Shown here piece by piece: positions 1,700-21,827 of a stretch of 22,883 nt of DNA. The DNA is taken from contig JACRKZ010000080.1 in assembly GCA_016235455.1 (NCBI GenBank), positions 1 through 22,883 on the forward strand, given 5' to 3'. Source of the stretch: Armatimonadota bacterium. Lineage in GTDB: Bacteria; Armatimonadota; UBA10988. Under the pieces are notes generated by a model, which saw only the letters and a list, made by a program, of their open reading frames with translations, made no database searches and was not told the origin of the DNA. The position numbers were made by a program, and so were the translations under genes. The stretch's first letter is position 1; each line of letters opens with the position of its first letter.

Positions 1700-4042
1700 C
1701 TACACCGTCACTTCAGCGAAACCATACGCCACCAGCCCATCGTGCGGTTGACCGCTGATGTCGTTGATCGCCAGCGAGCAGCCCTGGGCCGTGCGGCGGA
1801 AGGCGGTAACGTGGGTGCTCTCCGGCCCGACGGTCAGCAGGCTGCCCTCAGCCGGCAGCTCGCCGCCGCCGGGCGTGACGGCGTGGACCGGCACCGCCGT
1901 GCGCAGTTGGCGCGCCACGAGCGCCAGGTGCGCCGCACCGCCGCGGACCAGCGCGAACCGGTGCTCGTACCAGTTGGCGAACTGGTCGCCCTTGGAGGTG
2001 ATCAGGTGGTCGCCGGTGCCGTCGGCGTGGAGGATGCACTGCGGCCTGGTGTCGGGCCGGCCCTGGGTCGACGTGCCCAGATTGGCGGCCAGATAGCCCT
2101 CGTCGCCACACACCTGGAACGACTGGTTGCCGCCCAGGCAGATCACGCCGAACGGTTCGGCCGAATCGAGCGCGGCGAAGCGCTGTACCGCCACCCACGA
2201 ACGGTCGCCCGTGGTGTGCGTGATGGTGGCGTAGGGAATGTCGTACAGCACGCGCCCAGGCGCGCCCCGGAAGCTGAGCTTGAGGCCCTCGGGGTCGTAG
2301 CCCAGATTGCCGATGCGGCGCGGCATGTCGAAGTGCACCTCGGCGCAGAGCTCGGCGCGGCCCGCGCGCAGGCCGATGGTCAGCCGCAGCCATACCGCCC
2401 AGGCCAGCTCGCAGAACACTTCCAACTCAGGGCCGAACAGTGTGGAGCGCACGCGGGTGGTGGCGCAGGCCCAGTCGGGCTTGACGTCCTCGGTCGGCGC
2501 GGTGCCCGACGGATCGGACAGCCGGAACGGCTCGATGGCGACGGTCAGGCCGTCGATGGTCAGCCTGCCGTCGACCAGCGCCGCGCTGACGCCGTCGGCC
2601 TCAATGGCGCCGCCGGCGGTCCAGACGGGCGGTGGAGTCGGGTCGCTGGGGTTCAGTTCGAGCAGGCGGTAGCCATAGGCCGGCAGCGCCACCTCGGCGC
2701 GCGCGGTCCAGCCGTGCTCGCCGCGCAGCGTGGCCGTGGCGCAGCCGACCAAGGCCATCGGTCGCGGCGTCGACACCTCGATCGTGACGGTGCGTGCCGG
2801 CCCGGGGTTGAGCGCGAGCACATGGCTGCGGGCGGCGCTGCCGGGCTGAGCCAGCCGCTGCGCAAGGTCGTCGGCAAACCGTTCGGTGACCTCCTGGGCC
2901 AGCAGCCTGGCACTGCGCAGACACAGGTTGCGGTGCCGCGTGCGCGGGGTCCAGGGGAACCAGCCGCTGGCGTCGGAGTTCAGCCCGATGAGTGCCAGAT
3001 GCCAGGCCCGCGACATGAGCGTGGGCCCGCCGGTGCGGCTCAGGCTCAGCGCCTCGGTCTCGGGGTACTCGGTGACCTCCTCGAAGTGATGGTCCCAGAC
3101 GTTGTCGGGCAGCGCAGCATACGATTCCGCCAGCGGCACATCAAGCTCATTCATGCCGCGCGTGGCCGCGACGACATTGGCGAATCCGGCCGCGCGCACG
3201 GCTTCCAGCGCCTCGACGGCATGGCCGTGCCAGATCATGTCTTCGGGGTCGCCCACCCAGCGCGAGAAGCTCGGGCTCTCAAACACGTCCTCTAGGCACT
3301 GGCCGCAGGGGTTCGGCGCCGGGCTCGGCTCGGGCAGGCCGACCTCCGCGTCGAAGCGGTCCACGGTCGTCCATTCGATGACCTTGCCGCGAGCGGCCAA
3401 CTCCTCGATGCTGCGGACCACGCCTTCGAGGTTGCACAGCAGCTCGAAATCGCCGCCCGCCATGACGAAACTGCCATCGTCGTGAGCGTCGTAATACTGC
3501 TCCAGCGCCCCGAGCCGGCAGGTGCGCAGGTTTAGCGGGTAGGTCGACAGCTGTCGACCGTCGACACCCAGGATGCGGCGCGGGCCTTTCCAGCCCGGCG
3601 GCATGACGATCAGCCGGCTGTGTCCCATCTGTTCCATGATGAGCGGCTGCTGCGGATGGTAGGTCATCTCCTGGGGGAAGAAGGTGGTCACCCGCGTGGC
3701 GCACTCGCGTTCTGTGATCTCGCGCGTCACGCGGCCTGAGAGCAGGTCGCTCTCCTCATCGGCGCACAACGCGTGGCTGGCGGCATACTGGCAGCCGACC
3801 ATGACGATCTGCCCACGGTCGATCAGCGGCTGCATCTCGTCGAGCAGCCACGGCGCATGGTGGCGTAGGCTGAGCACGGTCAGGCCCGGCAGGTCGATGT
3901 GCGCGGTAACCTGCGGGAACTTGGCCAGCCCGCGAATGCCGGCGGCATAGATGGTGGGGAACTTGGCGCGGATCTCCTGCTTGGTGTAGCGGTCGTAGCA
4001 CATGTTGCCGTGCAGGAGCAGTGAGAGATAGACCTTCTTCAT
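1700..4042 (-). CDS. Glycoside hydrolase-like protein: GH57-type N-terminal barrel with GH38-like C-terminal beta domains
   Basis: 780 aa from ATG 4042 (AGGA upstream). N-terminal LLLHGNMCY...IDLPGLTV...LIDRGQIVMVGCQY...FFPQEM resembles the GH57/GH38-N barrel, with a candidate nucleophile Glu in FFPQE. LNSDASGW, ALNPGPART, LPAYGYRLL and YDIPYATI resemble alpha-mannosidase-type C-terminal regions. No signal peptide visible. Confidence 0.65.
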   Translation of the reverse strand: MKKVYLSLLLHGNMCYDRYTKQEIRAKFPTIYAAGIRGLAKFPQVTAHIDLPGLTVLSLRHHAPWLLDEMQPLIDRGQIVMVGCQYAASHALCADEESDLLSGRVTREITERECATRVTTFFPQEMTYHPQQPLIMEQMGHSRLIVMPPGWKGPRRILGVDGRQLSTYPLNLRTCRLGALEQYYDAHDDGSFVMAGGDFELLCNLEGVVRSIEELAARGKVIEWTTVDRFDAEVGLPEPSPAPNPCGQCLEDVFESPSFSRWVGDPEDMIWHGHAVEALEAVRAAGFANVVAATRGMNELDVPLAESYAALPDNVWDHHFEEVTEYPETEALSLSRTGGPTLMSRAWHLALIGLNSDASGWFPWTPRTRHRNLCLRSARLLAQEVTERFADDLAQRLAQPGSAARSHVLALNPGPARTVTIEVSTPRPMALVGCATATLRGEHGWTARAEVALPAYGYRLLELNPSDPTPPPVWTAGGAIEADGVSAALVDGRLTIDGLTVAIEPFRLSDPSGTAPTEDVKPDWACATTRVRSTLFGPELEVFCELAWAVWLRLTIGLRAGRAELCAEVHFDMPRRIGNLGYDPEGLKLSFRGAPGRVLYDIPYATITHTTGDRSWVAVQRFAALDSAEPFGVICLGGNQSFQVCGDEGYLAANLGTSTQGRPDTRPQCILHADGTGDHLITSKGDQFANWYEHRFALVRGGAAHLALVARQLRTAVPVHAVTPGGGELPAEGSLLTVGPESTHVTAFRRTAQGCSLAINDISGQPHDGLVAYGFAEVTV

Positions 4043-4081
4043 GGGCACGTCCTGTTAGGGCGGGGCTTCGCCAGCGTCGAT

Positions 4082-4130
4082 GGGCCTCCTTCCAGCTGGA
4101 GGCCTTTGGCCCTCGGCTGGAAGGAGGCCC
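4082..4130. repeat. Perfect 15-bp inverted repeat in a divergent intergenic region
   Basis: GGGCCTCCTTCCAGC (4082-4096) / GCTGGAAGGAGGCCC (4116-4130), with further imperfect pairing in the spacer (GAGGCC-TTT-GGCC-CTC). Confidence 0.85.
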
Positions 4131-4168
4131 CTGGCGCTTGTCCAAACCGCGCGTCAGGGGAGCCTCAC

Positions 4169-7100
4169 ATGGTTCGCACGCTGCTTTCGCTGCTCCTGGT
4201 GGACGCCCTGGTAGGAGCGACTCCGATGGTCACCTCGCTCGACGGCACCTGGCAACTGACAACCGACCCGCGCAACGAGGGTCGCGAGGCGAAGTGGTTC
4301 GACGGCTTGCCGCCGGGCGCCAAGCCCGCGGCCGTGCCGTGGATCATCCAGGACGCCTTCCCCGGCTACCACGGTGTGGCCTGGTACCAGCGCGAGTTCA
4401 CCGCCGAGCCGCTGACGCATGCCGGTGGCCGCTACCTGCTGCGCTTCTGGGCTGTGGACTACCAGGCCGAGGTCTGGCTCAACGGCCAGCGGCTCGGCGC
4501 GCACGAAGGCGGCGAGACGCCGTTCGTCCTCGACGCCACGGCTGCCGTGCGCCTGGACGCGCCGAACCGGCTCACGGTGCGCGTGCTCAACCCGACCAAC
4601 GAGCCCATCGACGGCATCGTGCTGCGCGAGACGCCGGCGCGGAACAAGGTCATCCCGTATGCCGCGGGCAACTCCTACAACCACGGCGGCATTGTCGACT
4701 CCGTCGAACTGCTGGCCGCGCCCGCCGTGCGCATCGCCGACCTGTTCGTGCGCTGCGCCGTCGCGGACGGCACCGTGCGCGCGCGGGTGGAGATCGACAA
4801 CAGCACGCCCGCGCCGGTCACGCTGCCGCTGGCCCTGGCCATCGCGCCGGCCGCGGCCGGGGTGACGCTGGCCACGACCGCGGTCCAGGTCACCGCCGCG
4901 CCGGGCACCAGCGTGCACGAGGTCAGCCTGAAACTGGCCCAGCCGCACCTGTGGGACCTGAACGATCCCTACCTCTATCGCGTCACCGCGCGGCTGGCCG
5001 ACGACGAGACGTCCGTGCGCTGCGGCTTCCGTGATGTGCGGTTCGAGGGTGGCGCCTTTCGCCTCAACGGCCGGCGAGTGTTCCTGCGCTGCTCGCACAC
5101 CGGCAACCACTGCCCCGTGGGTCAGCAGTTTCCCGTCGATCCCGACTGGCTGCGGCGCGACCTGGTCAACGTCAAGGCCATGGGCTTCAACGCTATCCGC
5201 TTCATCGCCGGGCTGCCGACACGCGCGCAGCTCGACCTGTGCGACGAACTGGGCCTGATGGTCTACGATGAGCACTACGGGTCGTGGTGCCTGGCCGAAT
5301 CGCCCAAGTTCGTCGAGCGCTTCGACCGCTCCGTGGCCGAGATGGTGCGGCGTGACCGCAACCACCCCAGCGTCGTGTTCTGGGGCCTGCTCAATGAGAC
5401 CAACGACGGCACGCTGTTCCGCCATGCCGTGGCCAGCCTGCCGCTGCTGCGCGCGCTGGACGACTCGCGGCTGGTGCTGCTCAACAGCGGCCGTTGGGAC
5501 AACCAGGTGGGCAGCCCAATGGCCGGCCTGAGCATCTGGCGGCGCGAGGACGGCCCCGACCCCAACGTCACACAGAACAGCACCAAGCGGGCCATCACCG
5601 GCCTGGGCATCACCTGGCAGCCGGGCGCATTGGCGCTGCATCCGGGCGCCAAGGGCGAGTACAGCACCGTCCGCTTCGTCGCGCCGGCCGCCGGTACGGC
5701 GAGCATCGCCGCTGCGTTCACCAGCATCGCCGAACACGCCACCACCGACGTGCATGTGCTGCACAACGGCAAGCCGTTGTTCGACGGCGGCATCAACATC
5801 GACGGTCACGGCCCGCGCGCCGAGTGGCAGGGGCAGGTGCCGGTGGGCGACGGCGACACCATCGACTTCGCGGTGGGCTATGGCAATGGCCACTACGGCG
5901 GCGACACCACGGCGCTGGCCGCGTCCATCGACCTGGCCGGAACGGCTTATAACGCCGCGACCGGCTTCGCGCTGACCAACCCCGCCGGCCCCTGGACCTA
6001 CGGCACACTGGCGCCGGGCGCGAAGCCCGACGGCGCCACCTACGCCGCCTACGCCCAGGGCATCGTGATCGGCACAGGCAACGGCATCGGCAGCCTGAGC
6101 AACCCGGGCTCGGCGGTGTGGGAAGACCTGCTCGACGACACGCACCCCTACCAACGCGTGCCGCACACGGCCTCGGTCATCCGCACGCTGCGCACGCTCG
6201 GCGGCGGCGCGCGGCCCATGTTCGTCTCGGAGTACGGTGTGGGCAGCGCCGTCGACCTGCCGCGTGTGGCGCGCTGGTATGAGCAGCTCGGCAAGACCGA
6301 GGCCGAGGACGCCCGGTTCTACCGCGACAAGCTCGACCGCTTCCTGGCCGACTACCAGCGCTGGCACCTCGACGACTGTTTCGCGCGGCCCGAGGACTTC
6401 TTCGCGGCCAGCCACAAGAGCATGGCCGCCGACCGGCTCTACGGGCTCAACGCGCTGCGCGCCAACCCCAACGTCGTGGCCCACAGCGTGACCGGCACCG
6501 TGGACCAGGGCATGAGCGGCGAGGGCCTGTTCACCACCTTCCGCGAGCTCAAGCCGGGCACCGTCGACGCCCTGTTCGAGGCCTGGGCGCCGTTGCGCCT
6601 GTGTCTGTTCGCCGAGCCGGTGCAGGCCTATCGCGGCGGCAAGGTCCGGCTGGAGGCCGTGCTGGCCAACGAGGATGCGCTGGCTCCGGGCGACTATCCC
6701 GTGCGGCTGCAGGTGGTCGGGCCGGGCCTGACACGCGTGCTCGACAAGGTCGTCACCGCAACCGTCACCCGCGACGCGCCGTTCGCCGTGCCGCTGTGGA
6801 CCGACGATGTAGCCCTGGACGGGCCGGCCGGCGAGTACCGCTTCCTGGCCACCTTCGAGCGCGGCGGCGCCGCCACCGGTGGCGAGGCGCGCTTCCAGGT
6901 GACCGATGCGGCGGCCATGCCGGCGGTGGACACCATCATCACGCTGTGGGGCGAGGACGCCGGCCTGGCGCGCTGGCTGGCCGACCACGGCATCCGCACC
7001 CGCGCCTTCGCGGCGGTGGCGCCGGCGCGGCCCGAACTGATCCTGGTCGGCGACAAGGCGCCAGCCGACGAGGTGGCGTGGCAGGACCTGACCGCCCGCG

Positions 7101-7537
7101 TCCGGGCCGGCTCGCGCGTGGTCTTCCTCTCGCCCGCGGTCTTCCGGCGCGGCGACGATGCCGTGGGCTGGCTACCGCTCAACCCGCGCGGCCAGCTCGT
7201 GGGGCTGCCGGCCTGGCTGTACCACAAGGACGAATGGGCCAAGCCGCATGCGGTGTTCGACGGCCTGCCCGCGGGCGGGCTGATGGACCATCTCTACTAC
7301 CGCGAGATAATCGGTGATCAGGCCTTCACCGGCCAGGACGCGCCGCTGGAGGCCATCGCCGGCGCCTGCAACGCGTCGTTCGACTACAGCTCGGGCCTGA
7401 CCTGCGCGGCGTACGCGCTGGGCCAGGGCAAGCTGGTGCTCAACTCGCTGCTGATCCGCGAGAACCTCGACGGCCATCCCGTGGCCGAGCGCCTGCTGCG
7501 CAACCTGCTGCGCTGGATGGCACGCGATCTGGGATGA
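4169..7537 (+). CDS. Secreted glycoside hydrolase family 2 with an inserted beta-domain and a C-terminal extension
   Basis: 1122 aa from ATG 4169 (GGGGAG upstream); hydrophobic N-terminus; SLDGTW, YHGVAWYQREF, VWLNGQRLGAHEGGETPF, LWDLNDPYLY, CGFRDV, KAMGFNAIR, LDLCDELGLMVY, RDRNHPSVVFWGLLNE (acid/base Glu), FVSEYG (nucleophile Glu). Confidence 0.92.
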   Translation: MVRTLLSLLLVDALVGATPMVTSLDGTWQLTTDPRNEGREAKWFDGLPPGAKPAAVPWIIQDAFPGYHGVAWYQREFTAEPLTHAGGRYLLRFWAVDYQAEVWLNGQRLGAHEGGETPFVLDATAAVRLDAPNRLTVRVLNPTNEPIDGIVLRETPARNKVIPYAAGNSYNHGGIVDSVELLAAPAVRIADLFVRCAVADGTVRARVEIDNSTPAPVTLPLALAIAPAAAGVTLATTAVQVTAAPGTSVHEVSLKLAQPHLWDLNDPYLYRVTARLADDETSVRCGFRDVRFEGGAFRLNGRRVFLRCSHTGNHCPVGQQFPVDPDWLRRDLVNVKAMGFNAIRFIAGLPTRAQLDLCDELGLMVYDEHYGSWCLAESPKFVERFDRSVAEMVRRDRNHPSVVFWGLLNETNDGTLFRHAVASLPLLRALDDSRLVLLNSGRWDNQVGSPMAGLSIWRREDGPDPNVTQNSTKRAITGLGITWQPGALALHPGAKGEYSTVRFVAPAAGTASIAAAFTSIAEHATTDVHVLHNGKPLFDGGINIDGHGPRAEWQGQVPVGDGDTIDFAVGYGNGHYGGDTTALAASIDLAGTAYNAATGFALTNPAGPWTYGTLAPGAKPDGATYAAYAQGIVIGTGNGIGSLSNPGSAVWEDLLDDTHPYQRVPHTASVIRTLRTLGGGARPMFVSEYGVGSAVDLPRVARWYEQLGKTEAEDARFYRDKLDRFLADYQRWHLDDCFARPEDFFAASHKSMAADRLYGLNALRANPNVVAHSVTGTVDQGMSGEGLFTTFRELKPGTVDALFEAWAPLRLCLFAEPVQAYRGGKVRLEAVLANEDALAPGDYPVRLQVVGPGLTRVLDKVVTATVTRDAPFAVPLWTDDVALDGPAGEYRFLATFERGGAATGGEARFQVTDAAAMPAVDTIITLWGEDAGLARWLADHGIRTRAFAAVAPARPELILVGDKAPADEVAWQDLTARVRAGSRVVFLSPAVFRRGDDAVGWLPLNPRGQLVGLPAWLYHKDEWAKPHAVFDGLPAGGLMDHLYYREIIGDQAFTGQDAPLEAIAGACNASFDYSSGLTCAAYALGQGKLVLNSLLIRENLDGHPVAERLLRNLLRWMARDLG

Positions 7538-7588: not shown

Positions 7589-9631
7589 CTACGGCTTGGC
7601 CAACACGGCGCAGTCGAGCCCGAAGTAGAACTTCGGCCCGGTCGACGCCGGATTGGTGCCGACCACCTCGGCACGCAGCGTCAGCACGCCGTCCTTCGGC
7701 GTGAAGGTGCCCAGCGCCACCGGGCCGGCCAGGACCGCCTTGGGGTCGTAGGCGTCGTAGTCATCGCCGGCCTTCTGACCGTTGACCGTGAAGCGCAGGA
7801 TGCCATAGTCGCGGCTCTTGGTCAGCCACAGGCTCACCGCGCGGGGCGCGTTGTCCGGCACCGGCAGCGCCAACTCAACGAAGTCGCCCGCCCGGCTGGC
7901 CAGGACGAAGAGCTGCTGACCACCGCTCCATTCGCCTTCAGTGAGCCCGGCGTTCTGCGTCTCCACCTTGAGATCGCGCGAGGCGGCGACCGGCTTGAGA
8001 GTCTCCAGTTCCACAGCGCCTGGCCGCTTGAGCGAGCCTGGAGCATCACGCACGGCGGCGATCGCTTCGGCCGGCTGCGGCACGCGGTTGTGGGTCGCGC
8101 CGGGCCGCGCATACCAGAACGAGCCGACGGCATAGTCCACCTGCGTGTCCGCCCAGTTCCAGATCTCCATGTCCACCCGCAGGTCGCGCGCGTAGGCGAT
8201 GCCGTCCAGCAGCCGCAAGCGCGAGGTGGTCGTGTAGCCGCGCCAGTCGCCCTGGTTGAGGATGTCGCGCTCGGGCATCGACAGCCACGGCGAGGAGAAG
8301 AAGTTGCTCATGCCCCAGGCGTAGCCGTAGTAGTCTTCGGTGCCCGTGCCGATATGCTGCGGATAGGTCGCGCCGTCGTAGTAGATGCGCTCGTCGCCCT
8401 CGCCATACCACTCGCGCGCCGGGCTGAACACCGACAGCGTGTCGCCCACGTAGGTGCCGGCGCCGGTGGTGGCCAGGTAGTTCCAGTCGCTCATCGGTCG
8501 GGTCTTGATGGGCTCCTGCCGCCGCCAGGTGGCGTGGAACAGCATCGAACGCTCATCCCAGGTCCACGGCCCCGTGCCCACGCCGAGACTGGCCATCACC
8601 GGCTCCGCGCCGACGTTGACCAAGGCGATGCTGCCGCTCTTGGCATACGGCATGACCCAGCGCGCGGTCAGCGTGCCGTCGACGGTCACCGCCCGCCACC
8701 AGTCGCGCACCGACCGCAGCCGCGGCCCGCAGCCGAAGAACTCGCCCAACGGGCACCACACGGTGTCCTCGCCGTCGAACCGGGCGGTCAGCACCAGCGA
8801 GCGCAACGCTTGCGGCGCGGCCTTGGGATCGACATGGATGCGCACCTCGGTCACGGCCTTGGGCCCGGCGGGCAGATCAACGGTCAGCGGCCGATCCTGG
8901 CTCAGGCCGCTCCACTTGGTGTCGTCGTCGATCGCGGGCTCAGGCGCCAGCAGCGCCGCGGCGGCCTTGTCCAGCGCGGGTTTGGCGGCCTCCAGCACGG
9001 CCGGGCTGAGCGATTCCACCGTCGTGCCGGCCACGTAGGCGCGGTAGTTGATGACGTAGTAGAACGGCGCCTGGTCGAGCGTGATCTTGAGGTGTCGGGC
9101 AAACGGGATGGGCAGGTAGAGGTCGCCCGACACGCCGCGCGCGGCCTTGTAGCCGGGCGCGAGTTGGTTGGCCAGGTCGGTTTCGTTCCAGCCGCGGAAG
9201 GCGAACGGCGGCTTGACAAAGCCCTGCCCGCAGAGCAGGTCGTTGAGCTTGGCGACAAAGCGTGGCGCGGGCTCGCCGTCGAAGTAGAACCGTACCTGCT
9301 GCGCGTCTTTCTCAGCCAGCAGCGGAATCCACCACCGCGTGATCACACCCGGCCCATCGGCGTCCATGATGACCCATTCGCGCCGGCCTTCGTTCAGCTC
9401 GGTGTGGATGAAGTTGCCATAGTCCTGGTTGGTGTGCCAGGTCTCCGCGTTGAACGGGTCGTTCTTGCGCGGGTCGTGGCTGCTGGCCTGCTTCAGCGAC
9501 CAAGCCGAGCCCGGCACGGTAGCCACGGCCGACCGGTCGGTCATCTCCGCCAGCAGCGAACTCAGCGTGACCGGAGCGGCGCCGGCAGCGGCGGCCACGG
9601 TCCCCATCAGTGCCAACACGAACCCACGCAT
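7589..9631 (-). CDS. DUF2961 / GH172-family glycoside hydrolase, secreted, with a C-terminal beta-sandwich (CBM-like) domain
   Basis: 680 aa; signal peptide MRGFVLALMGTVAAAAGA; DADGPGVITRWW, YLPIPF, PLGEFFG, WVMPY, FHATW, WYGEGDERIYYDG, GTGTEDYYGYAW. C-terminal WSGGQQLF...TKSRDYGI...FGLDC domain. Confidence 0.88.
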   Translation of the reverse strand: MRGFVLALMGTVAAAAGAAPVTLSSLLAEMTDRSAVATVPGSAWSLKQASSHDPRKNDPFNAETWHTNQDYGNFIHTELNEGRREWVIMDADGPGVITRWWIPLLAEKDAQQVRFYFDGEPAPRFVAKLNDLLCGQGFVKPPFAFRGWNETDLANQLAPGYKAARGVSGDLYLPIPFARHLKITLDQAPFYYVINYRAYVAGTTVESLSPAVLEAAKPALDKAAAALLAPEPAIDDDTKWSGLSQDRPLTVDLPAGPKAVTEVRIHVDPKAAPQALRSLVLTARFDGEDTVWCPLGEFFGCGPRLRSVRDWWRAVTVDGTLTARWVMPYAKSGSIALVNVGAEPVMASLGVGTGPWTWDERSMLFHATWRRQEPIKTRPMSDWNYLATTGAGTYVGDTLSVFSPAREWYGEGDERIYYDGATYPQHIGTGTEDYYGYAWGMSNFFSSPWLSMPERDILNQGDWRGYTTTSRLRLLDGIAYARDLRVDMEIWNWADTQVDYAVGSFWYARPGATHNRVPQPAEAIAAVRDAPGSLKRPGAVELETLKPVAASRDLKVETQNAGLTEGEWSGGQQLFVLASRAGDFVELALPVPDNAPRAVSLWLTKSRDYGILRFTVNGQKAGDDYDAYDPKAVLAGPVALGTFTPKDGVLTLRAEVVGTNPASTGPKFYFGLDCAVLAKP

Positions 9632-9705
9632 GGACTGGCTCCTGGTGGACAGTGTGGCAGGTTGGGGCAGGGCGTGGCAAGAGGAGTTGCGCGGCCCGGT
9701 GGCTG

Positions 9706-9735
9706 TTGACGCTCAAGGGGCCCGCGAGATAGAGT
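9706..9735 (+). promoter_or_regulatory. Candidate sigma70 promoter for the 9786-11016 cassette
   Basis: TTGACG (9706-9711) - 18 nt - TAGAGT (9730-9735), about 50 nt upstream of ATG 9786. The -35 lies within a small palindrome TTGA-CGC-TCAA. Confidence 0.55.
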
Positions 9736-9785
9736 GAAGATGTGCAGTCGAGCAATGGAGATGGCGAGGCGCGAGGGGTGGAGCC

Positions 9786-10217
9786 ATGAACCGAACCGAG
9801 TTTGAGGCGTTGCGCGACCTACCTGGCAAGACCATACGGGACGATATCAGGTTCGTCGAGAGGCGCGCGACCAAGCCGTTGCTCGTTGCCGAGGACCTGC
9901 GCATCCACAACGACCACGATGTGGACGCGCGTATGAATATCACCTACAACCCGGCGGTCCGCTCAGTGTCGATCAACGTGCATGTGCCGGGTCTCGGACC
10001 GATCTGCCGACTGGACAGCAATGGGCCGCGGCACCGTCCGTGCGGTCGTGACCACAAACACGCCCTGGTGACCGAGGAGTGCCCGCGCCGGAACCTCGCG
10101 GACGGGGTCACCGACCGGCCCGAGTTGGCTCGCAAGTCAACGAGGGAACTGTTTGCCTGGTACTGCACGGTCGCTAGAATCGACCATGAAGGTGTCTTTG
10201 TCGCGCCGGATGAGTGA
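9786..10217 (+). CDS. Small hypothetical protein, DUF6978-like, with a RLD-x5-H-x6-H-x-H motif
   Basis: 143 aa; GGAG RBS; MNRTEFEALRDLPGKTI...ICRLDSNGPRHRPCGRDHKH...ELFAWYCTVARIDHEGVF. Family call is from recall of the motif and its usual pairing with DUF1828. Confidence 0.6.
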   Translation: MNRTEFEALRDLPGKTIRDDIRFVERRATKPLLVAEDLRIHNDHDVDARMNITYNPAVRSVSINVHVPGLGPICRLDSNGPRHRPCGRDHKHALVTEECPRRNLADGVTDRPELARKSTRELFAWYCTVARIDHEGVFVAPDE

Positions 10218-10227
10218 GGAACAAGCC

Positions 10228-11016
10228 ATGTGGACCGTGGGCCAGATCGAAACGGCAGTGGCCGGGCACTCGCTGATTCGCGACATGGACCGGTTACCGG
10301 CTGGTGTGATGCGCATCGAGACGTCGTTCCAGTACCCAGACGGCGCATCAGTGGAGGTGTTCCTCGGCCACGAGCCCAGCCTGCTGCCCGAGGAACGTGC
10401 GCCGTACACACTGGACGATGCGGGCCAGACCATGGCCTGGCTGCTGGATGTGCAGGTGAAACCGTGGCTGTCGAGCAGGCGCAGAGCATTCGTCGACGAT
10501 GCACTGCGCGTCTACGGCATCCGTCAGGAAGGCGCCGTCCTGGGCTGCCGGTTGAGCGCGCTCAGCGAGCTGCCCGATGGCATTGTCAGGCTTGGCCAGG
10601 CGTGTCTGCGTGTGGCTGACCTGACCTACACCCGCAGAGCAGCCCTGCAGACCGAGTTCACCGAAGAGATCGGCGAGGTGTTGACCGACATCGAGGTCCC
10701 CTACGACCAGGACGTGGAACTCCTCGGGCGGTACGGCAACGTGGTCAGGGTGGACTTCGTCGCACATGGCGCCAGCACCACGTCGGCGGTCCTGGCGCTC
10801 TCATCGGCGAACCGGTCGCAGGCGCATGTGCTTGCCAACGAGGTCTTCCGCCGATGGTATGACCTGGACGTGCCGGAGCGGAGCGAGCAGCGCGTCACCG
10901 TCTGGGACGACCGGCACGATGTCTATCGCGATGACGACCTGCAGCGCCTGCATGAGATCTCCAGTCTGGTGCCGCTATCGGACCGGCAGGCGGTGGCCGA
11001 CTTGCTCGTGGCGTAG
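10228..11016 (+). CDS. DUF1828-domain protein with a C-terminal restriction-endonuclease-like (DUF1829-like) domain
   Basis: 262 aa from ATG 10228; GAGGA RBS overlaps the upstream stop. N-terminal IETSFQYPDGASVEVFL...LDDAGQT matches DUF1828. C-terminal FTEEIGEVL...VELLGRYGNVVRVDF...WYDL...VTVWDD has a REase-like pattern without an obvious (D/E)xK. Confidence 0.75.
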   Translation: MWTVGQIETAVAGHSLIRDMDRLPAGVMRIETSFQYPDGASVEVFLGHEPSLLPEERAPYTLDDAGQTMAWLLDVQVKPWLSSRRRAFVDDALRVYGIRQEGAVLGCRLSALSELPDGIVRLGQACLRVADLTYTRRAALQTEFTEEIGEVLTDIEVPYDQDVELLGRYGNVVRVDFVAHGASTTSAVLALSSANRSQAHVLANEVFRRWYDLDVPERSEQRVTVWDDRHDVYRDDDLQRLHEISSLVPLSDRQAVADLLVA

Positions 11017-11082
11017 ATCGGCCCAGCCTCCAACCCGACATCCACCCCATCGCGCACCACCATGCCTTGCGGAGCACAAAGC

Positions 11083-11904
11083 ATGGAGTTCCGGTACTTC
11101 CGCGCGATGTGGGGCATGGAGCAGCCGACGCTCGAAGCCAACCTGCGGCAGATCCGCGACGGCGGGTTCGACGGCGTGGAGATGGGCGCGCCCGCCGACG
11201 CCGACGACCGACGCGCATTGCGCGACCTGCTCGACGAGCTCGGCCTGGCGCTGATCGTGCAGCAGTGGACCCGCGGCGACACGCCCGAGCAGCACGCCGA
11301 CAGCTTCGAGGCGCAGTACCGCGCCGCGGCCGACCTGGCGCCGTTGCTGGTCAACTCGCAGTCGGGCCGCGACATCTACTCGACCGAGCAGAACCTGCTG
11401 GTCATCGACCGCGGCCGCGCGCTGGAGGACGAACTCGGCGTGACCGTCACCCATGAGGTGCATCGTGGCCGCGCCACCTTCTGCACCGCGTCGACCATGG
11501 CGCTGCTCGACGCGGCGCCCGACCTGCGGCTCACCGCCGACCTCTCACACTGGTGCTGCGTGCACGAATCGCTGCTGGCCGACCAGGACGCCGCCGTGCA
11601 ACGTGCCATCGAGCACGCCTACCACATCCACGCCCGCGTCGGCCATGCCGAGGGCCCGCAGGTGCCGGACCCGCGCGCCCCGGAGTGGCAGCCGGCGGTC
11701 GACGCCCATGTGGGCTGGTGGCAACGTATCGTCGATCACCAGCGGGCCCAGGGCCGCGAGACCATGACCATCTGCCCCGAGTTCGGCCCGCCCGGCTACA
11801 TGCCAACGCTGCCCTTCACCCGCCAACCCGTGACCAGCCTGTGGGAGGTCAACCTGCACATGAAGGACCTGCTGGCGGCGCGCCTTGCGCGGGGTCGGGC
11901 GTAG
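11083..11904 (+). CDS. Sugar phosphate isomerase/epimerase family protein (xylose isomerase-like TIM barrel)
   Basis: 273 aa from ATG 11083 (GGAG upstream); GFDGVE, HEVHRGR, TADLSHWCCVHES, HIHARVG, PQVPDPRAPEW, CPEFGP. Confidence 0.85.
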   Translation: MEFRYFRAMWGMEQPTLEANLRQIRDGGFDGVEMGAPADADDRRALRDLLDELGLALIVQQWTRGDTPEQHADSFEAQYRAAADLAPLLVNSQSGRDIYSTEQNLLVIDRGRALEDELGVTVTHEVHRGRATFCTASTMALLDAAPDLRLTADLSHWCCVHESLLADQDAAVQRAIEHAYHIHARVGHAEGPQVPDPRAPEWQPAVDAHVGWWQRIVDHQRAQGRETMTICPEFGPPGYMPTLPFTRQPVTSLWEVNLHMKDLLAARLARGRA

Positions 11905-12006: not shown

Positions 12007-14238
12007 TCACCTGACCATGGGGCACGCCAGCAGGCACGCCTCGAAGTTGCAGGGCCGGTACTTGGGGATTGCCGGCTGCTGCCGCAGCGCCGTGGCCAGC
12101 GATTCGGCGGAGATGACGTCGGGAGCGGGCAGGTTCAGGTCCCAGCCCAGGAAGTTGACGCCCTCTTCGCCATTGAGCGAGTAGCGCTTGCTCCAGTCGC
12201 AGCGTGTGCGCTCGATCGGCCGGAAGCGCTCGATGTTGCCCGCCACCTCCACCGTCGCCTCGGGTCCGAAGGCGGTTGTGGCGCAGGCGCTCACGCAGCG
12301 CGTGCAGTCCTCGCAGGCGGCGGTCAGGCCGGCGTCGGCGATGACCTCGTCAGCCGCGATCTCGGCGTCGGTGATGACCGCCACATAGCGCCCGAACGGG
12401 CCCAGCACCGGCGATACGACGAAGCCCGCGCGGCTCAGATGGCCCAGCCCGGCGGCCACGGCGGCGAAGCGGTTGGCGAAGGCGTCCGGCTGGTCGCCGC
12501 GCGGATTACCCACCACCGATCCCGTGCCGCACAGATCGAAGCTCAGCGTGGCGCGATGGCCGCGATCCTCCAGCCAGCGCATCACCCGCAGTGCCGTCAG
12601 CCGCAGCAGGTTGGTCGATTCGTACTGCGCGAAGGCGTACGGCCCGACCGACTCCGCCGGCGGCAGGGCCGTGCGCTCCACCGACGCCCTGGGCAGCCGC
12701 AGGCCGATGACCAGCACCGACTTCGCGCCCGCCAGATGGTCCTCGGGCCGTTTGACCTGCACCGTCGACGCGGTCACCCGCGGCTCATAGGGCATGAACC
12801 GGTGCGACACATCGCGCGCGTCGAGCCGCGCCATGCCGTCGAACACCTCGGACAATGCCGGATGCAGCGCGTCGAGCCGCTCTGCCGGGGCCACGCCCAT
12901 GACATCGGCGCCCAGCTCGGCGGTCAGCCGCGCCAGTTGTGCGCGGCGCTGTGCCGCGTCGAGCGGCGGCGGCGCCGGCACGGCCAGGTCCAGGCTGGTC
13001 GGGCTCAACTCGGCGGCGCAGATGACGGTATGCGTCTGCACCGCCCAGCCCGCGGGCAGGCCGGTGAACTGCGCCTGCACCGTCGCTTCGTCCAAATCGG
13101 TGGCGCAGACGGCGCTGTAGCCCCAGCGCTCGATCTCGCGGGTCACGTCGTAGGCCGCGGCGTCGAGCAGGTAGCTGCGCGCCGCCGCGCTCAAGTCCGG
13201 TCCTTCGGGCCGACGGTAGCGCAGGCCGAGCGTGACCGCCGAGCGGCCGTCGGGCAGCCATCGCGTCACATCGCCCAGTTCGGGCACGGCCACGAAGTCG
13301 CAGCCCTGCCGGTAGGCCATGGCCGCCACGGCCTGCCCCAGCCCACGATGCCCCTCGTCGCCCGCGGGCGTGTTGCGTCGACGGCGTGGCGCGTCGGCAT
13401 AGCCGCGATCGAAGTAGCGGCGGGCCTTGGGCACGCAGAAGCGCAGGCAGCAACCCATCTCGCCGCCACGCAGGCCGTGCTCGCGGACGTTGGCCAGGAT
13501 GACCGCCTCGTCCACCACCTCGGGGATGGGCAGGTCCAGGTCCAGGTCGAAGTGCTCACCCCAGGCGCAACGCCACAGGTTCTTGTTGGCCTTGGTATAG
13601 ACCTTGTCCTCGATGGGCAGCTCGTCGAGGCCGCCAAGCTCCTTGGACAGCGCGCCCGACGGACAAAGCCGCACGCACAACCCGCAGTCGTCGCACACGC
13701 TGCCCGGCTCAAGCAGCGGCGTCGGCTCCAGGATCGCGTCGGTGATGACCGTGACGAAGCGTTGCCGCGCGCCATACTCGGGCGTGATGGCCAGCCCGCT
13801 GTAGCCCAGGTCCGACAGGCCCGCCGCCACCGAGGCGTAGATGTGGCTCATGTCCGGCGCGAAGTGTGCGGTCAGCTCCTTATACCCCTTGTACCGCCAG
13901 ATGTTCGAGCTGACGATGGGCACCGCGCGGTAGCCCTCGCGCTCCAGCCACACACCGAGCCGGTACGACATCTCGTCGAGGCGGTCGTTCATACGGTACT
14001 GCACGCGGTACGGCCCGATCTCCTGCGGATGCGTCAACCCACCCAGCTCGATGCACGCGTCGGGATGATGGATGGCCATGACCACCACCGACCGCGCCGC
14101 CGGGAACAGCCCTTGCGGCGACATCATCAGCGGCGCATGAGCGAACCGCTCGATGTTGGCCACGCCCACCAGGTCCGCCGCCAGCACCTCGCGCGCATAG
14201 GCCTTCAGCCGGCCGGTCATCACCGAGTCCACTGCCAT
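12007..14238 (-). CDS. Multi-module QueG / reductive dehalogenase-like cobalamin- and 4Fe-4S-binding protein (two full modules and one degenerate module)
   Basis: 743 aa from ATG 14238 (AGGAGG 6 nt upstream). Module 1: ADLVGVA..P..LFPAARSVVV..SHIYASVAAGLSDLGYSGLAITPEYGARQRFVTVITDA..CDDCGLCVRLCP..RC..CCLRFC. Module 3: GADVMGVA..HLAGAKSVLV..AAVAAGLGHL..YVAVITDA..CEDCTRCVSAC..RC..CNFEACLLACP. The middle module (GCDFVAV..WLPDGRSAVT..IERWGYSA..TVICAAEL) lacks the Fe-S motifs. Confidence 0.82.
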   Translation of the reverse strand: MAVDSVMTGRLKAYAREVLAADLVGVANIERFAHAPLMMSPQGLFPAARSVVVMAIHHPDACIELGGLTHPQEIGPYRVQYRMNDRLDEMSYRLGVWLEREGYRAVPIVSSNIWRYKGYKELTAHFAPDMSHIYASVAAGLSDLGYSGLAITPEYGARQRFVTVITDAILEPTPLLEPGSVCDDCGLCVRLCPSGALSKELGGLDELPIEDKVYTKANKNLWRCAWGEHFDLDLDLPIPEVVDEAVILANVREHGLRGGEMGCCLRFCVPKARRYFDRGYADAPRRRRNTPAGDEGHRGLGQAVAAMAYRQGCDFVAVPELGDVTRWLPDGRSAVTLGLRYRRPEGPDLSAAARSYLLDAAAYDVTREIERWGYSAVCATDLDEATVQAQFTGLPAGWAVQTHTVICAAELSPTSLDLAVPAPPPLDAAQRRAQLARLTAELGADVMGVAPAERLDALHPALSEVFDGMARLDARDVSHRFMPYEPRVTASTVQVKRPEDHLAGAKSVLVIGLRLPRASVERTALPPAESVGPYAFAQYESTNLLRLTALRVMRWLEDRGHRATLSFDLCGTGSVVGNPRGDQPDAFANRFAAVAAGLGHLSRAGFVVSPVLGPFGRYVAVITDAEIAADEVIADAGLTAACEDCTRCVSACATTAFGPEATVEVAGNIERFRPIERTRCDWSKRYSLNGEEGVNFLGWDLNLPAPDVISAESLATALRQQPAIPKYRPCNFEACLLACPMVR

Positions 14239-14256
14239 CCGCATCCTCCTCATGGC

Positions 14257-16398: not shown

Positions 16399-16597
16399 CC
16401 GCGTACCCCGCTGGCAGGCTGTTACCCGCGGATGATGCCTGCCAAGCGGGCGATTGTTGCGCTGGCGTTGCCACCGGGTTGCGATCCGCCTTGACGCGGG
16501 GATCATCGCTGGGCAACGCTATAGGTGGGACCACCTTTGACGCCCATCGTGCGAGCACGTCTTGGCGCGAGGCCGGGTGGCCCAAGGAGAAATCGTG

Positions 16598-17308
16598 ATG
16601 CGCAGAACCAAGATCGGCCGTTCCGGGGCCGGCTTCACGCTGATCGAACTGCTGGTGGTCATCGCCATCATCGCCATCTTGGCCGCCATTCTGTTCCCCG
16701 TGTTCGCCAAGGCTCGCGAGAAGGCCCGGCAGTCGAGTTGCCAGAGCAACCTCAAGCAGATGGGTCTGGCCGCTCAGCAGTACGCCAGCGACTACGACAG
16801 CAACTATGCCGCCTGCAACACCGGCTCCGCCACCATCCTGGGCGTGACCGGCCGCATCTGGTGGCAGGGCCTGCTTCGGCCGTACACCAAGAGCTACCAG
16901 ATGTTCGCCTGCCCCAGCTTCACGGGCCCGCGCTTCTACGGCGAGACCGAGGCTTCGCCGTGGCCCGGCGACTCGTCGTACCGCTTCCACGCGGGCTACG
17001 GCATGAGCTGGTACCGCCCGGCGGGCATGGCTGACTCGGACCGCGGCCAGTGGGCCGACATCTCCGAGTCGTCCATCCGCAGTCCCGCGGAACTGGTCTA
17101 CATCACCGAAGGCACCAACATCGTGTGCGGCCCGCGGCCCAGCGGCGGCTACAGCACAGCGCAGTTCACCACGGACAGCCAGAACGACCCCAACCTGTGG
17201 CTCTGGCAGCGCCGCCACCTGGAGGGCGCCAACGTGCTGTTCTGCGATGGCCACGTGAAGTGGCAGAAGGTGGAATCGCTCAAGGACGCCAACTGGAACT
17301 ACCAGTAG
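16598..17308 (+). CDS. Prepilin-type N-terminal cleavage/methylation protein with DUF1559 and a C-terminal H-X9-DG motif
   Basis: 236 aa; AAGGAG RBS; G|[51 protein letters not shown]; FACPS; [17 protein letters not shown]. Confidence 0.95.
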
Positions 17309-20866: not shown

Positions 20867-21748
20867 CTAGCCGCGCGCCAGCGCCGCGAACAGCGCCCAG
20901 GCCGCATAGGCCTTGCGGTTGCCGTTCAGCGCCTGGCTGTGCGCCGCGTCGCAGTTGTACCAGTCGACGCCCTCTTTGTGCGCGGCTTGCCAGTCGCGGG
21001 CCCAGTTGCGGCCGCCCTGGTAGTCGCAGCCATCGGTGGCCGCGCGCGACAGGTATTCCTTGCCGTCGGGATCGTAGCTCTCGATGTCGGCGAAGTCATA
21101 GAGCCACTTTCCGCCCGCGCGGCAGTGCGCGCGCACGATCTCGTTGTTCTGGTTAAGCCGGCCGTTGACGCCGGTGCCGTCGAGATGACCGGTCATGTAG
21201 ACGAAGCGCACCCCAGGGTAGGCCTTCTCCAGCCGGCCCATGCCGTCCAGGTACCAGCGCACTTCCTTGTTCGGGTCGAAACCGCTCATTTGGCCGCAGA
21301 ACGACCACATGATCACGTTGACCGCTGGCTGCTTGGCGCCCCGACCGTCGGCGGTGGGCTCGCCCAGCAAGCGGCGCGTATCGATCTCGTACTGCATCGT
21401 GCCCGCGTTGGGGCTGACGTAGCCGCAGTCGCTGGGCATGGCGCCGTCCAGGAGACGCAACGCCCCACCCGCGCCGTCACGGTTGAACGTGTACAGCCCG
21501 CGGCCACCCATGAACCGGTCCAGCGGGCCCATGCCACTGGGGATCTGGCTGCCGTGCGAGGTGTGACCGTAGGCCACGACCAGCTTCTGCTTGGCGGCCA
21601 CGATGTCGGCCGCGGGGATGGCCCGCAACGCCGCCAACGTGGCCTGCTGATGGCCGATGACCGCGCCCTTGACCGGATCGGAGCCGGCCCGCGAACACGC
21701 GGTCAGCGTCAAGGCGGCCAGCAGCACGCCGCTCATTCGAAACACCAT
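20867..21748 (-). CDS. Hypothetical lipoprotein with an SGNH-hydrolase-like fold
   Basis: 293 aa from ATG 21748 (GGAGG RBS); lipobox LTAC; AYGHTSHGSQ (block I-like Ser), VIMWSFC, FVYMTGH, NNEIVR, LYDFADIES, DAAH (DxxH). Confidence 0.6.
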   Translation of the reverse strand: MVFRMSGVLLAALTLTACSRAGSDPVKGAVIGHQQATLAALRAIPAADIVAAKQKLVVAYGHTSHGSQIPSGMGPLDRFMGGRGLYTFNRDGAGGALRLLDGAMPSDCGYVSPNAGTMQYEIDTRRLLGEPTADGRGAKQPAVNVIMWSFCGQMSGFDPNKEVRWYLDGMGRLEKAYPGVRFVYMTGHLDGTGVNGRLNQNNEIVRAHCRAGGKWLYDFADIESYDPDGKEYLSRAATDGCDYQGGRNWARDWQAAHKEGVDWYNCDAAHSQALNGNRKAYAAWALFAALARG

Positions 21749-21827
21749 GTGAGCCTCCGATATCACGACCTGCGTGTCGTGAAGTCGACTCATCGTGGCG
21801 CGAGGTCATGGCGGGCGCAAGGTGAAC

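Follow-up and report, generated by a model that had tools for sequence, protein, structure and literature searches.

A divergent PDC-M24 gene pair of an Armatimonadota bacterium as a candidate defense or conflict module

The Locus and Its Place in PDC-M24

The subject of this report is a two-gene cassette in a 22,883-nucleotide (nt) stretch of DNA from an Armatimonadota bacterium (GenBank assembly GCA_016235455.1, contig JACRKZ010000080.1, positions 1 to 22,883 of the forward strand). This whole stretch is called the window below. The cassette consists of gene A and gene B, which encode proteins A and B (Table 1). Judging from its sequence, it is a divergent member of PDC-M24, a catalogued candidate module of defense or conflict. 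Proteins A and B each give a full-length match to their PDC-M24 component model at the level of hidden Markov models (HMMs). The genes also have the architecture of PDC-M24, two neighbors on one strand; the gap between them is 10 nt. Protein A matches the PADLOC model PDC-M24A with an E-value of 1.2e-7 (29.8 bits; residues 1-141 on model positions 2-142 of 151). Protein B matches one PDC-M24B model, PDLC04540, with an E-value of 1.7e-39 (residues 27-261 on model positions 24-254 of 256), and the second, PDLC04539, with 9.2e-15; it also matches phrog_5059 (E = 2e-15). This assignment is based on HMM matches of PADLOC-DB v2, not on the system rules of PADLOC. The initial annotation of this DNA, made by a model from the sequence, had proposed a candidate new toxin-antitoxin or anti-phage system. 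As both proteins match PDC-M24, the claim of novelty does not hold, at the level of a named candidate.

The PDC systems are 145 phage defense candidates. They go back to genes found inside BREX, DISARM, and type I restriction-modification systems, and their authors describe them as untested (10.1101/2024.01.29.577857). Four of eight randomly chosen PDC/HEC candidates protected Escherichia coli; according to the part of that report available, PDC-M24 was not in the set (PMC12881386). A literature search for DUF1828, DUF6978, PF22398, and PF08861 returned incidental mentions only. The name PDC-M24 explains nothing about mechanism. What is added here is the anatomy of the family as a whole, structure models of both proteins, a protein A that has no solved relative, a degenerate catalytic motif in protein B, and a specific predicted interface between the two.

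Gene A ends with the TGA codon at 10215-10217, and gene B starts with the ATG at 10228. The tight coupling of the genes, the putative ribosome-binding site overlapping the stop codon, and the TTGACG-18-TAGAGT promoter-like sequence described in the initial annotation are all present in the sequence, and so is the position of the cassette between sugar genes, here encoding a DUF2961 protein and a xylose-isomerase-like TIM barrel. Two promoter-like sites were observed in 9400-11400, against 0.2 expected from shuffled sequences. The second of them lies within gene A and could allow expression of gene B independently of gene A. No terminator-like site was found 3' of gene B, and the next gene on the same strand begins 45 nt past its end, so that the cassette has a plausible start signal and no evident end signal. 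The description of the cassette as self-contained therefore applies to the promoter-like site alone.

The cassette is also distinct in base composition. Its guanine-cytosine (GC) content is 64.4%, against a window mean of 69.8% (standard deviation, 2.0 points among segments of equal size). No other stretch of the window is as poor in GC; only 0.7% of the segments are as low, and all of them overlap the cassette. The GC content at third codon positions (GC3) is 0.778 in gene A and 0.833 in gene B, against 0.89-0.92 in most neighboring genes. A lower GC content had been claimed from hand counts (55-65% against 77-82%); its direction is confirmed, and its size is smaller. The same tendency is found in the family. 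In 28 of 29 loci with enough flanking sequence, the GC content of the pair is below that of the flanks, by 6.7 points on average, and the difference of -5.7 points in the window is typical of this. The pair is compositionally foreign to its surroundings.

Table 1. Positions of the cassette, its parts, and its neighbors in the window, and contexts of related loci (positions of named loci are in their own coordinates)
Feature	Position	Strand	Remarks
Promoter-like site TTGACG, 18-nt spacer, TAGAGT	9706-9711 and 9730-9735	+	Upstream of gene A; 9/12 consensus; consensus match only
Shine-Dalgarno-like purine-rich stretch GAGGGGTGGAG	9773-9783	+	5' of gene A ATG; read from sequence
Gene A	9786-10217	+	143 amino acids (aa); PDC-M24A-like, remotely DUF6978-like small alpha+beta protein
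His triad R75-L-D-x5-H83-x6-H90-K-H92 of protein A	10008-10061	+	Residues 75-92; alignment conservation
Second promoter-like site TTGCCT-16-TAGAAT	10153-10180	+	Within the 3' end of gene A, 5' of gene B; consensus match only
GAGG Shine-Dalgarno-like element of gene B	10216-10219	+	Overlaps gene A stop; 8 nt 5' of ATG
Gene B	10228-11016	+	262 aa; PDC-M24B-like, two domains
DUF1828 domain of protein B	10321-10614	+	Residues 32-129; PF08861, 32.2 bits against a cut-off of 22, model 1-91 of 91
PD-(D/E)xK-fold (restriction-endonuclease-like) C-terminal domain of protein B	10633-11013	+	Residues ~136-262; Foldseek against PDB
GH2 gene	4106-7537		Pfam scan of window proteins
DUF2961 gene	7589-9631	-	Strand opposite to cassette; Pfam scan
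Xylose-isomerase-like TIM barrel (sugar-isomerase-like) gene	11062-11904	+	Pfam scan
L023	639-16178		DrmD-DrmMI-[A-B]-DrmA-DrmB on one strand; complete-looking DISARM operon, Nannocystis metagenome-assembled genome (MAG)
L003			DrmA and DrmB immediately downstream of pair
L005	1-9211		Within type III restriction-modification locus
L014			Shango SngC and SngB
L015			Type I restriction subunit
L016			BrxC
L030			Type III methyltransferase
L033	8106-10771		Bro-N protein matching PDC-S13 and type I specificity-subunit models, upstream; second Bro-N-like open reading frame (ORF) fragment
L044			DrmMI-like or type IIG enzyme and Fic
L021			MazF and HicA (Pfam)
L043	3915-9357		Pair between relaxase (DUF3363/MobA-like) and type IV coupling protein (Pfam); Rhodospirillaceae MAG
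L012			PIN_8 (Pfam)
L037			T5orf172 and helicase (Pfam)

Protein A

Protein A belongs to a small family, with 129 homologues and 225 representatives at E ≤ 1e-3 among 1.84 billion. It has no Pfam match at E ≤ 1, and neither protein A nor protein B matched NCBIfam. By protein-language-model features, its nearest clusters, and its nearest named family, are those of DUF6978 (score 0.91, 26 of 30 matches), a family itself without known function; when these clusters are left aside, the search gives nothing usable and no other named family. The DUF6978 HMM (PF22398) matches 8 of 76 divergent relatives of protein A, all below threshold (best E = 2.7e-5, 24.9 bits against a cut-off of 29.6). The best of these matches is co-linear over about 120 residues, and DUF6978 is the sole Pfam family that recurs there. 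P0366, the most DUF6978-like of the relatives, retrieved only itself when used as a homologue query. By sequence, then, protein A is a remote relative of DUF6978 and not a member by the rule of Pfam. The label "DUF6978-like" first given to gene A is thus supported by the subthreshold matches of its relatives and not by a match of protein A itself.

The histidine motif, RLD-x5-H-x6-H-x-H, which the initial annotation read in gene A, is present. In the alignment of the 76 representatives, K15, H83, and H90 are invariant, and F6, R75, G87, R88, H92, and C127 are conserved in at least 90%. The motif is real and is a signature of the family because it is conserved in these divergent relatives. Its resemblance to the motif of DUF6516/TumE-type toxins, which had also been suggested, finds no counterpart in the profiles. 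Neither protein A nor any of the 76 relatives matches DUF6516 at E ≤ 1, and the gene order is opposite to that described for TumE in the available part of its report (PMC10584680). The analogy, as far as that text goes, lies in a similar verbal description of the two folds. To call protein A a metal-dependent nuclease is a guess.

The structure of protein A was modeled from 31 homologues with a predicted local distance difference test value (pLDDT) of 87.9 and a predicted template modeling score (pTM) of 0.84. The model has two helices and six strands of at least three residues. A Foldseek search of the PDB with this model gave nothing at E < 0.4 (best E = 0.48), and a sequence-profile search of the PDB returned only noise at E ~ 1. 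In BFVD, there was one borderline Foldseek match, A0A8S5NGZ0 (E = 0.03, template modeling (TM) score 0.56), which says nothing on function. This sole structural neighbor of protein A is a 154-aa uncharacterized protein of a metagenomic siphovirus (Siphoviridae), so that, at the level of models, it is a possible phage-borne relative of the fold.

Protein B

For protein B, 192 homologues were found, and its structure model is fully ordered (pLDDT 90.5). The two domains that the initial annotation assigned to gene B, DUF1828 and a restriction-endonuclease-like fold in the C-terminal half, were both recovered. The best Foldseek match in the PDB is VC1899 (E = 9.8e-5), and others are Cdn1, Can2, Card1, AF1548, Bax1, the R2 endonuclease domain, and type II restriction enzymes. 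The Foldseek probability is 0.94-1.00 for VC1899, Cdn1, Can2, Card1, AF1548, and Bax1, and 0.77-1.00 for four type II restriction enzymes. From these matches and from the order of secondary structures, an alpha-beta-beta-beta-alpha-beta core, protein B has the PD-(D/E)xK fold from about residue 136. In the long alignments, the TM-scores are 0.30-0.37 and the root-mean-square deviations 12-20 Å; therefore, little of protein B superposes outside the nuclease-fold domain. A sequence-profile search of the PDB with protein B found nothing.

Within this fold, helix 1 bears an invariant E150 and strand 2 an invariant D176. The following strand, strand 3, reads S186-A-x-L189 and has neither an acidic residue nor a lysine, so that there is no (D/E)xK motif, as the initial annotation had noticed. 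A series of other polar residues is invariant or nearly so (H200, N204, E205, R208, D212, D227, D228, Y233, D237, and R240), and these could form a non-canonical site. No helix-turn-helix, ribbon-helix-helix, or AbrB domain was found by Pfam in either protein. The role of protein B as an antitoxin, one of those considered at the outset, is a guess; protein B is more conserved than protein A (mean column identity, 64% vs 52%) and has no DNA-binding domain of an antitoxin, unlike a typical antitoxin.

The Predicted Complex

The A-B complex was modeled with a score of 0.88, which is a confidence of the model and not a measurement, against 0.25 for the best of three controls. Among solved complexes, 116 of 157 attain this mark, and among mismatched pairs, 2 of 215; the counts apply only approximately, since alignments made for this analysis were used. 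The contacts of the runs coincide to at least 87%, with a partner pLDDT of at least 88. In the predicted interface, residues 18-137 of protein B meet residues 27-34, 51-84, 92, and 100-105 of protein A. The side of protein B is made by the DUF1828 domain and the start of the linker helix, including the invariant residues R29, Y36, P37, G39, F45, G66, G102, and R137. The side of protein A includes R75, H83, and H92 within its residues 75, 77, 80-84, and 92. Therefore, the most conserved residues of the two proteins meet in the predicted interface, and the nuclease-fold domain of protein B stays free. No similar solved complex is known from the PDB profile and Foldseek searches of the two proteins. 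The model supports binding of protein A to the DUF1828 domain of protein B, and it fits the idea that a domain of protein B contacts, and possibly masks, the histidine site of protein A.

Such masking would also fit a type II toxin-antitoxin (addiction) pair. Under this explanation, protein A would be a small histidine-dependent toxin, perhaps an RNase as proposed for TumE, and protein B a large antitoxin whose DUF1828 domain covers the active face of protein A. The module would stabilize the islands and defense operons in which it travels, and phage defense would be a by-product in the form of abortive infection. The predicted interface does cover the invariant H83 and the conserved H92, and the promoter-like site within gene A could raise the expression of gene B. 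TumE, described as two helices on a seven-stranded antiparallel sheet without a PDB match in the part of its report available (PMC10584680), resembles the model of protein A in outline. However, no member of the A family matches DUF6516, and protein B is the better conserved of the two proteins. It is also fully structured and has none of the DNA-binding domains of antitoxins, and its second domain, which is strongly conserved, would be superfluous in an antitoxin. We regard this explanation as possible and rather doubtful, also in view of the gene order considered next.

The Pair in Other Genomes

A scan of one genome per species gave 50 loci with a relative of protein B. They are mostly from Myxococcota, and the other hosts are Acidobacteriota, Planctomycetota, Verrucomicrobiota, Alphaproteobacteria, a Cytophagia MAG, Leptospiraceae, Bacteriovoracaceae, and Schekmanbacteria. 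The distribution is thus patchy, covering at least eight phyla, and synteny is not conserved. When the integrity of the pair was judged by profile searches of six-frame ORFs, an intact gene A lay directly upstream of an intact gene B in 31 loci. In 15 loci, gene A and/or gene B was split or partial, in three gene B was at a contig edge and uninformative, and in one (L033) gene B was intact without gene A. Where there was room upstream, an A-like sequence was found directly upstream of gene B in 42 of 47 loci. Gene A comes first in all 31 intact pairs and in the window, and the spacing within these pairs varies between -14 and +16 nt; 16 of the 31 overlap by 4 nt.

Apart from A and B, no gene is conserved; the largest further cluster of flanking proteins occurs in 6 of the 50 loci. 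The distances of proteins A and B co-vary among 32 pairs (Mantel r = 0.869; 0 of 2000 permutations as high), which indicates co-inheritance as a unit and no more. The initial annotation had named the conservation of the genes as a pair as a check. The 31 intact adjacent pairs bear this out, with flanks that vary around a constant A and B. Its inference of a horizontally acquired conflict module is the interpretation best supported here, by a unit conserved across unrelated phyla and flanks, by a GC content below that of the surroundings almost everywhere, and by occasional embedding in DISARM and type III restriction-modification operons.

The bicistronic layout, with its frequent 4-nt overlap, suits a toxin-antitoxin system as well. 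So does the frequent decay of the pair. Of 47 informative loci, 15 are affected, and four of these have lost every A-like sequence; intact gene B without gene A occurs in just one locus. A part of the split genes, on the other hand, may be assembly errors of MAGs. MazF and HicA genes adjoin the pair in one locus. The order of the genes speaks against a toxin-antitoxin system, since the putative toxin gene would come first, which is the less common order; TumE is mostly encoded downstream of its partner, according to the available text (PMC10584680).

Fragments of gene B were observed besides the pair in two cases. At L012, the C-terminal half of protein B is encoded at 9597-9929, 2.6 kb downstream of the intact pair and beside the PIN_8 protein. 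In an Opitutus MAG, the intact pair is on one contig (L037) and a C-terminal fragment of B on another (L050). Two apparent A-B fusions, P0258 (398 aa) and P0324 (404 aa), consist of residues 1 to about 112 of protein A and the full protein B, with unrelated sequence in place of the last 30 or so residues of protein A. Since they thus resemble products of read-through across a frameshift, they were not counted as Rosetta-stone evidence.

Genomic Contexts of the Pair

Flanking genes of 100 aa or more within 5 kb, the nearest two per side, were scanned with Pfam and PADLOC, which covered 167 proteins of 49 loci. Specific defense neighbors were found in nine of the 49 loci (L023, L003, L005, L014, L015, L016, L030, L033, and L044; Table 1), a raw count to which Pfam adds the contexts of L021, L043, L012, and L037. 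In the DISARM operon of L023, gene A overlaps gene B by 4 nt, and the ORF of gene B overlaps the predicted start of drmA by 4 nt. L008 has DrmA and DrmB homologues by clustering, and L003 and L008 carry the same DrmA/DrmB proteins as L023. At L005, protein B is intact, and protein A has decayed to a remnant of 26 residues. They are bordered on one side by a DUF4391 protein and by a cluster mate of the type III methyltransferase of L030, and on the other by a type III restriction subunit (E = 0). Here, gene B seems to have persisted after the decay of gene A. The pair of L043 is flanked by a relaxase and a type IV coupling protein and therefore lies inside a conjugative element.

Several matches were dropped as generic: Ser/Thr kinase domains matching PD-T4-6 (L006, L019, and L025), ABC-F ATPases matching mad3 (L035 and L041), Lon matching BrxL (L018), a subtilase (L011), PolB against a homing-endonuclease model (L006), GlgB (L032), and adenosine deaminase (L049). 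Also removed from the defense count were a helix-turn-helix protein (L025), a Uma2/PDC-S03 match at 4.6e-11 (L047), and weak HerA-like matches in L008 and, additionally, in L015.

The contexts bear on a further explanation, in which the genes are an accessory pair for DNA processing or repair and stand outside any conflict. Protein B would be a DNA-binding protein of nuclease fold, non-catalytic or specialized, protein A a small cofactor subunit, and the pair would hitch-hike in variable regions. Ordinary metabolic neighbors at most loci, the window included, would be natural for such a pair, and so would the missing (D/E)xK motif and the absence of the family from plasmids and near-absence from phages in the collections scanned with protein B. 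However, an accessory pair of this kind does not account well for a patchy distribution over at least eight phyla without conserved synteny, for a GC content systematically below the flanks, for frequent pseudogenization, and for an in-frame placement in the operons of DISARM (L023) and of type III restriction-modification (L005). We consider it unlikely.

Other Genes of the Window

No integrase or transposase was found in the window, and Rfam and tRNA scans of it detected no RNA genes. An insertion scar at the cassette was sought, and the idea was dropped as the bracketing repeats are short, imperfect, and at the level of chance. These results concern the explanation as a selfish homing-like nuclease cassette, which would cut and invade target sites with protein A as a specificity or control subunit. 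A cassette that is small and autonomous, has a promoter-like site and a nuclease fold, and occurs in many unrelated contexts with a GC content below the flanks would fit this explanation. It is opposed by the lack of flanking direct or inverted repeats and of an integrase or transposase in the window, by the lack of a target gene conserved across loci, and by the incomplete catalytic triad of protein B, and we judge it very improbable.

Further off in the window are GH39 and esterase genes. The ORF at 12007-14253 on the minus strand (748 aa) has no Pfam or PADLOC match, and its translation has two ferredoxin-like cysteine motifs, CxxCxxCxxxC(P); it may encode an unclassified iron-sulfur enzyme amid the sugar genes. 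At 3-1604 on the minus strand lies a pyruvate-formate-lyase-like glycyl radical enzyme, partial at the window end, beside a radical SAM activase, which suggests an anaerobic glycyl-radical pathway next to the glycoside hydrolases. The ORFs at 1700-4048 (minus strand), 20867-21793 (minus strand), and 16562-17308 (plus strand) have a high GC3 (0.89-0.91), no assigned function, and no PADLOC match, and the first two of these have no Pfam match at E ≤ 1e-5.

Proposed Function

We propose that the cassette, as a member of the rare and horizontally moving PDC-M24 family, is a module against phages or mobile elements that works as a heterocomplex, and we would give this proposal an even chance. We infer three parts of it, namely the role in defense, nucleic acid as the target, and which way control runs. 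Protein A, with its fold absent from the PDB, its H83, H90, and H92, and its basic residues K15, R75, and R88, would dock with the face of the histidine triad onto the DUF1828 domain of protein B. The C-terminal PD-(D/E)xK-fold domain would be left free for nucleic acid. In uninfected cells, the complex would be latent. A phage cue would then alter or break the contact between the two proteins and release an activity directed to nucleic acid, the source of which may be the non-canonical nuclease-fold domain of protein B, the histidine site of protein A, or a site shared by both. The outcome would be damage to the invader DNA or growth arrest of the host. Defense is favored because of the embedding in DISARM and type III restriction-modification operons and because of the success of about one in two among the tested PDC/HEC candidates, as given in the available part of that report (PMC12881386).

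Various points weigh against this proposal. As for the proteins, the model of protein A has no recognizable catalytic fold, protein B may cleave nothing because the canonical (D/E)xK motif is missing, and the contact between them is a prediction. As for the genomes, about 40 of the 49 loci have housekeeping or uninformative neighbors, such as isocitrate dehydrogenase, GroEL/ES, Lon, HSP90, and GAPDH, so that enrichment near defense genes appears modest. In the window itself, none of the 14 other proteins has a defense-specific PADLOC match, and neither an insertion scar nor flanking direct or inverted repeats were found at the cassette. Protein B has no match among 72,556 plasmids and a single, distant one among 50,697 phage records, in a haloarchaeal virus (29.7% identity). 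Low GC content and the co-variation of proteins A and B are expected of any co-inherited accessory pair. Finally, the name PDC-M24 was found in no paper in the literature search. Of the other explanations, an accessory role outside conflict and a selfish nuclease of the homing type have the smaller probability, and the defense and toxin-antitoxin explanations overlap, as in abortive infection of the toxin-antitoxin type.

A more specific form of the defense proposal can be put forward tentatively. The pair may represent a new kind of defense effector, in which the DUF1828 domain of a degenerate PD-(D/E)xK protein completes or masks the histidine triad of protein A, with its one lysine and two arginines, so that the active or ligand-sensing center would lie at the interface and not in the nuclease fold. 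If this is true, DUF1828 and the DUF6978-like fold would each gain a first function, and it would explain the in-frame insertion into DISARM and type III restriction-modification operons as that of an accessory sensor or effector. Phage defense by the pair in any form would assign functions to these two families of DUF proteins and could reveal an accessory module of DISARM. If the pair does not defend against phages, it would be one more accessory pair of unknown role. In either case, the window contributes a divergent intact copy of PDC-M24 with its own promoter-like site. To the picture of the family are added an obligate pair, translational coupling, the embedding in DISARM and type III restriction-modification operons, and the foreign composition, together with confident structure models of both proteins and a concrete predicted interface that joins their most conserved residues.

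Comparison with Known Systems

Among the catalogued candidates, PDC-M24 itself is the closest. Its relatives embedded in DISARM and restriction-modification systems correspond to the criterion by which PDC systems are defined, as stated in the part of the source available (10.1101/2024.01.29.577857). The window copy differs in two respects: its protein A is distant from the PDC-M24A model, as the low bit score indicates, and it sits among sugar genes, unlike the defense-system setting of the PDC definition.

The pair shares with TumE-TumA a small alpha+beta protein without a PDB relative, a conserved bicistronic arrangement, and a predicted complex, as far as the accessible text describes that system (PMC10584680). 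It differs in the absence of a profile link, in the opposite gene order, and in the partner, which is a 262-aa protein of DUF1828 and nuclease fold here and a small DNA-binding antitoxin in the case of TumE.

DUF1829 often accompanies DUF1828 in Pfam architectures. A two-gene defense system with a partner protein made only of DUF domains, DUF3037 and DUF1829, is DS-6/HipAD, found by DefensePredictor (PMC13092281, in the part available). Protein B is unlike this second protein, as it has no DUF1829 or DUF3037 match at E ≤ 1, and protein A, unlike the other partner described there, is not a HipA kinase.

The best structural matches of protein B are the CARF-nuclease effectors Card1, Can2, Cdn1, and VC1899 (E = 1e-4 to 5e-3). 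They share with protein B an N-terminal sensor or docking domain that is followed by a C-terminal domain of PD-(D/E)xK fold. Protein B is unlike them in that it has no CARF sequence signal, no (D/E)xK motif, and no CRISPR or cyclase genes nearby. The partners of the N-terminal domains would also differ: this domain binds a cyclic nucleotide in CARF effectors, whereas in protein B it is predicted to bind a protein, its neighbor A.

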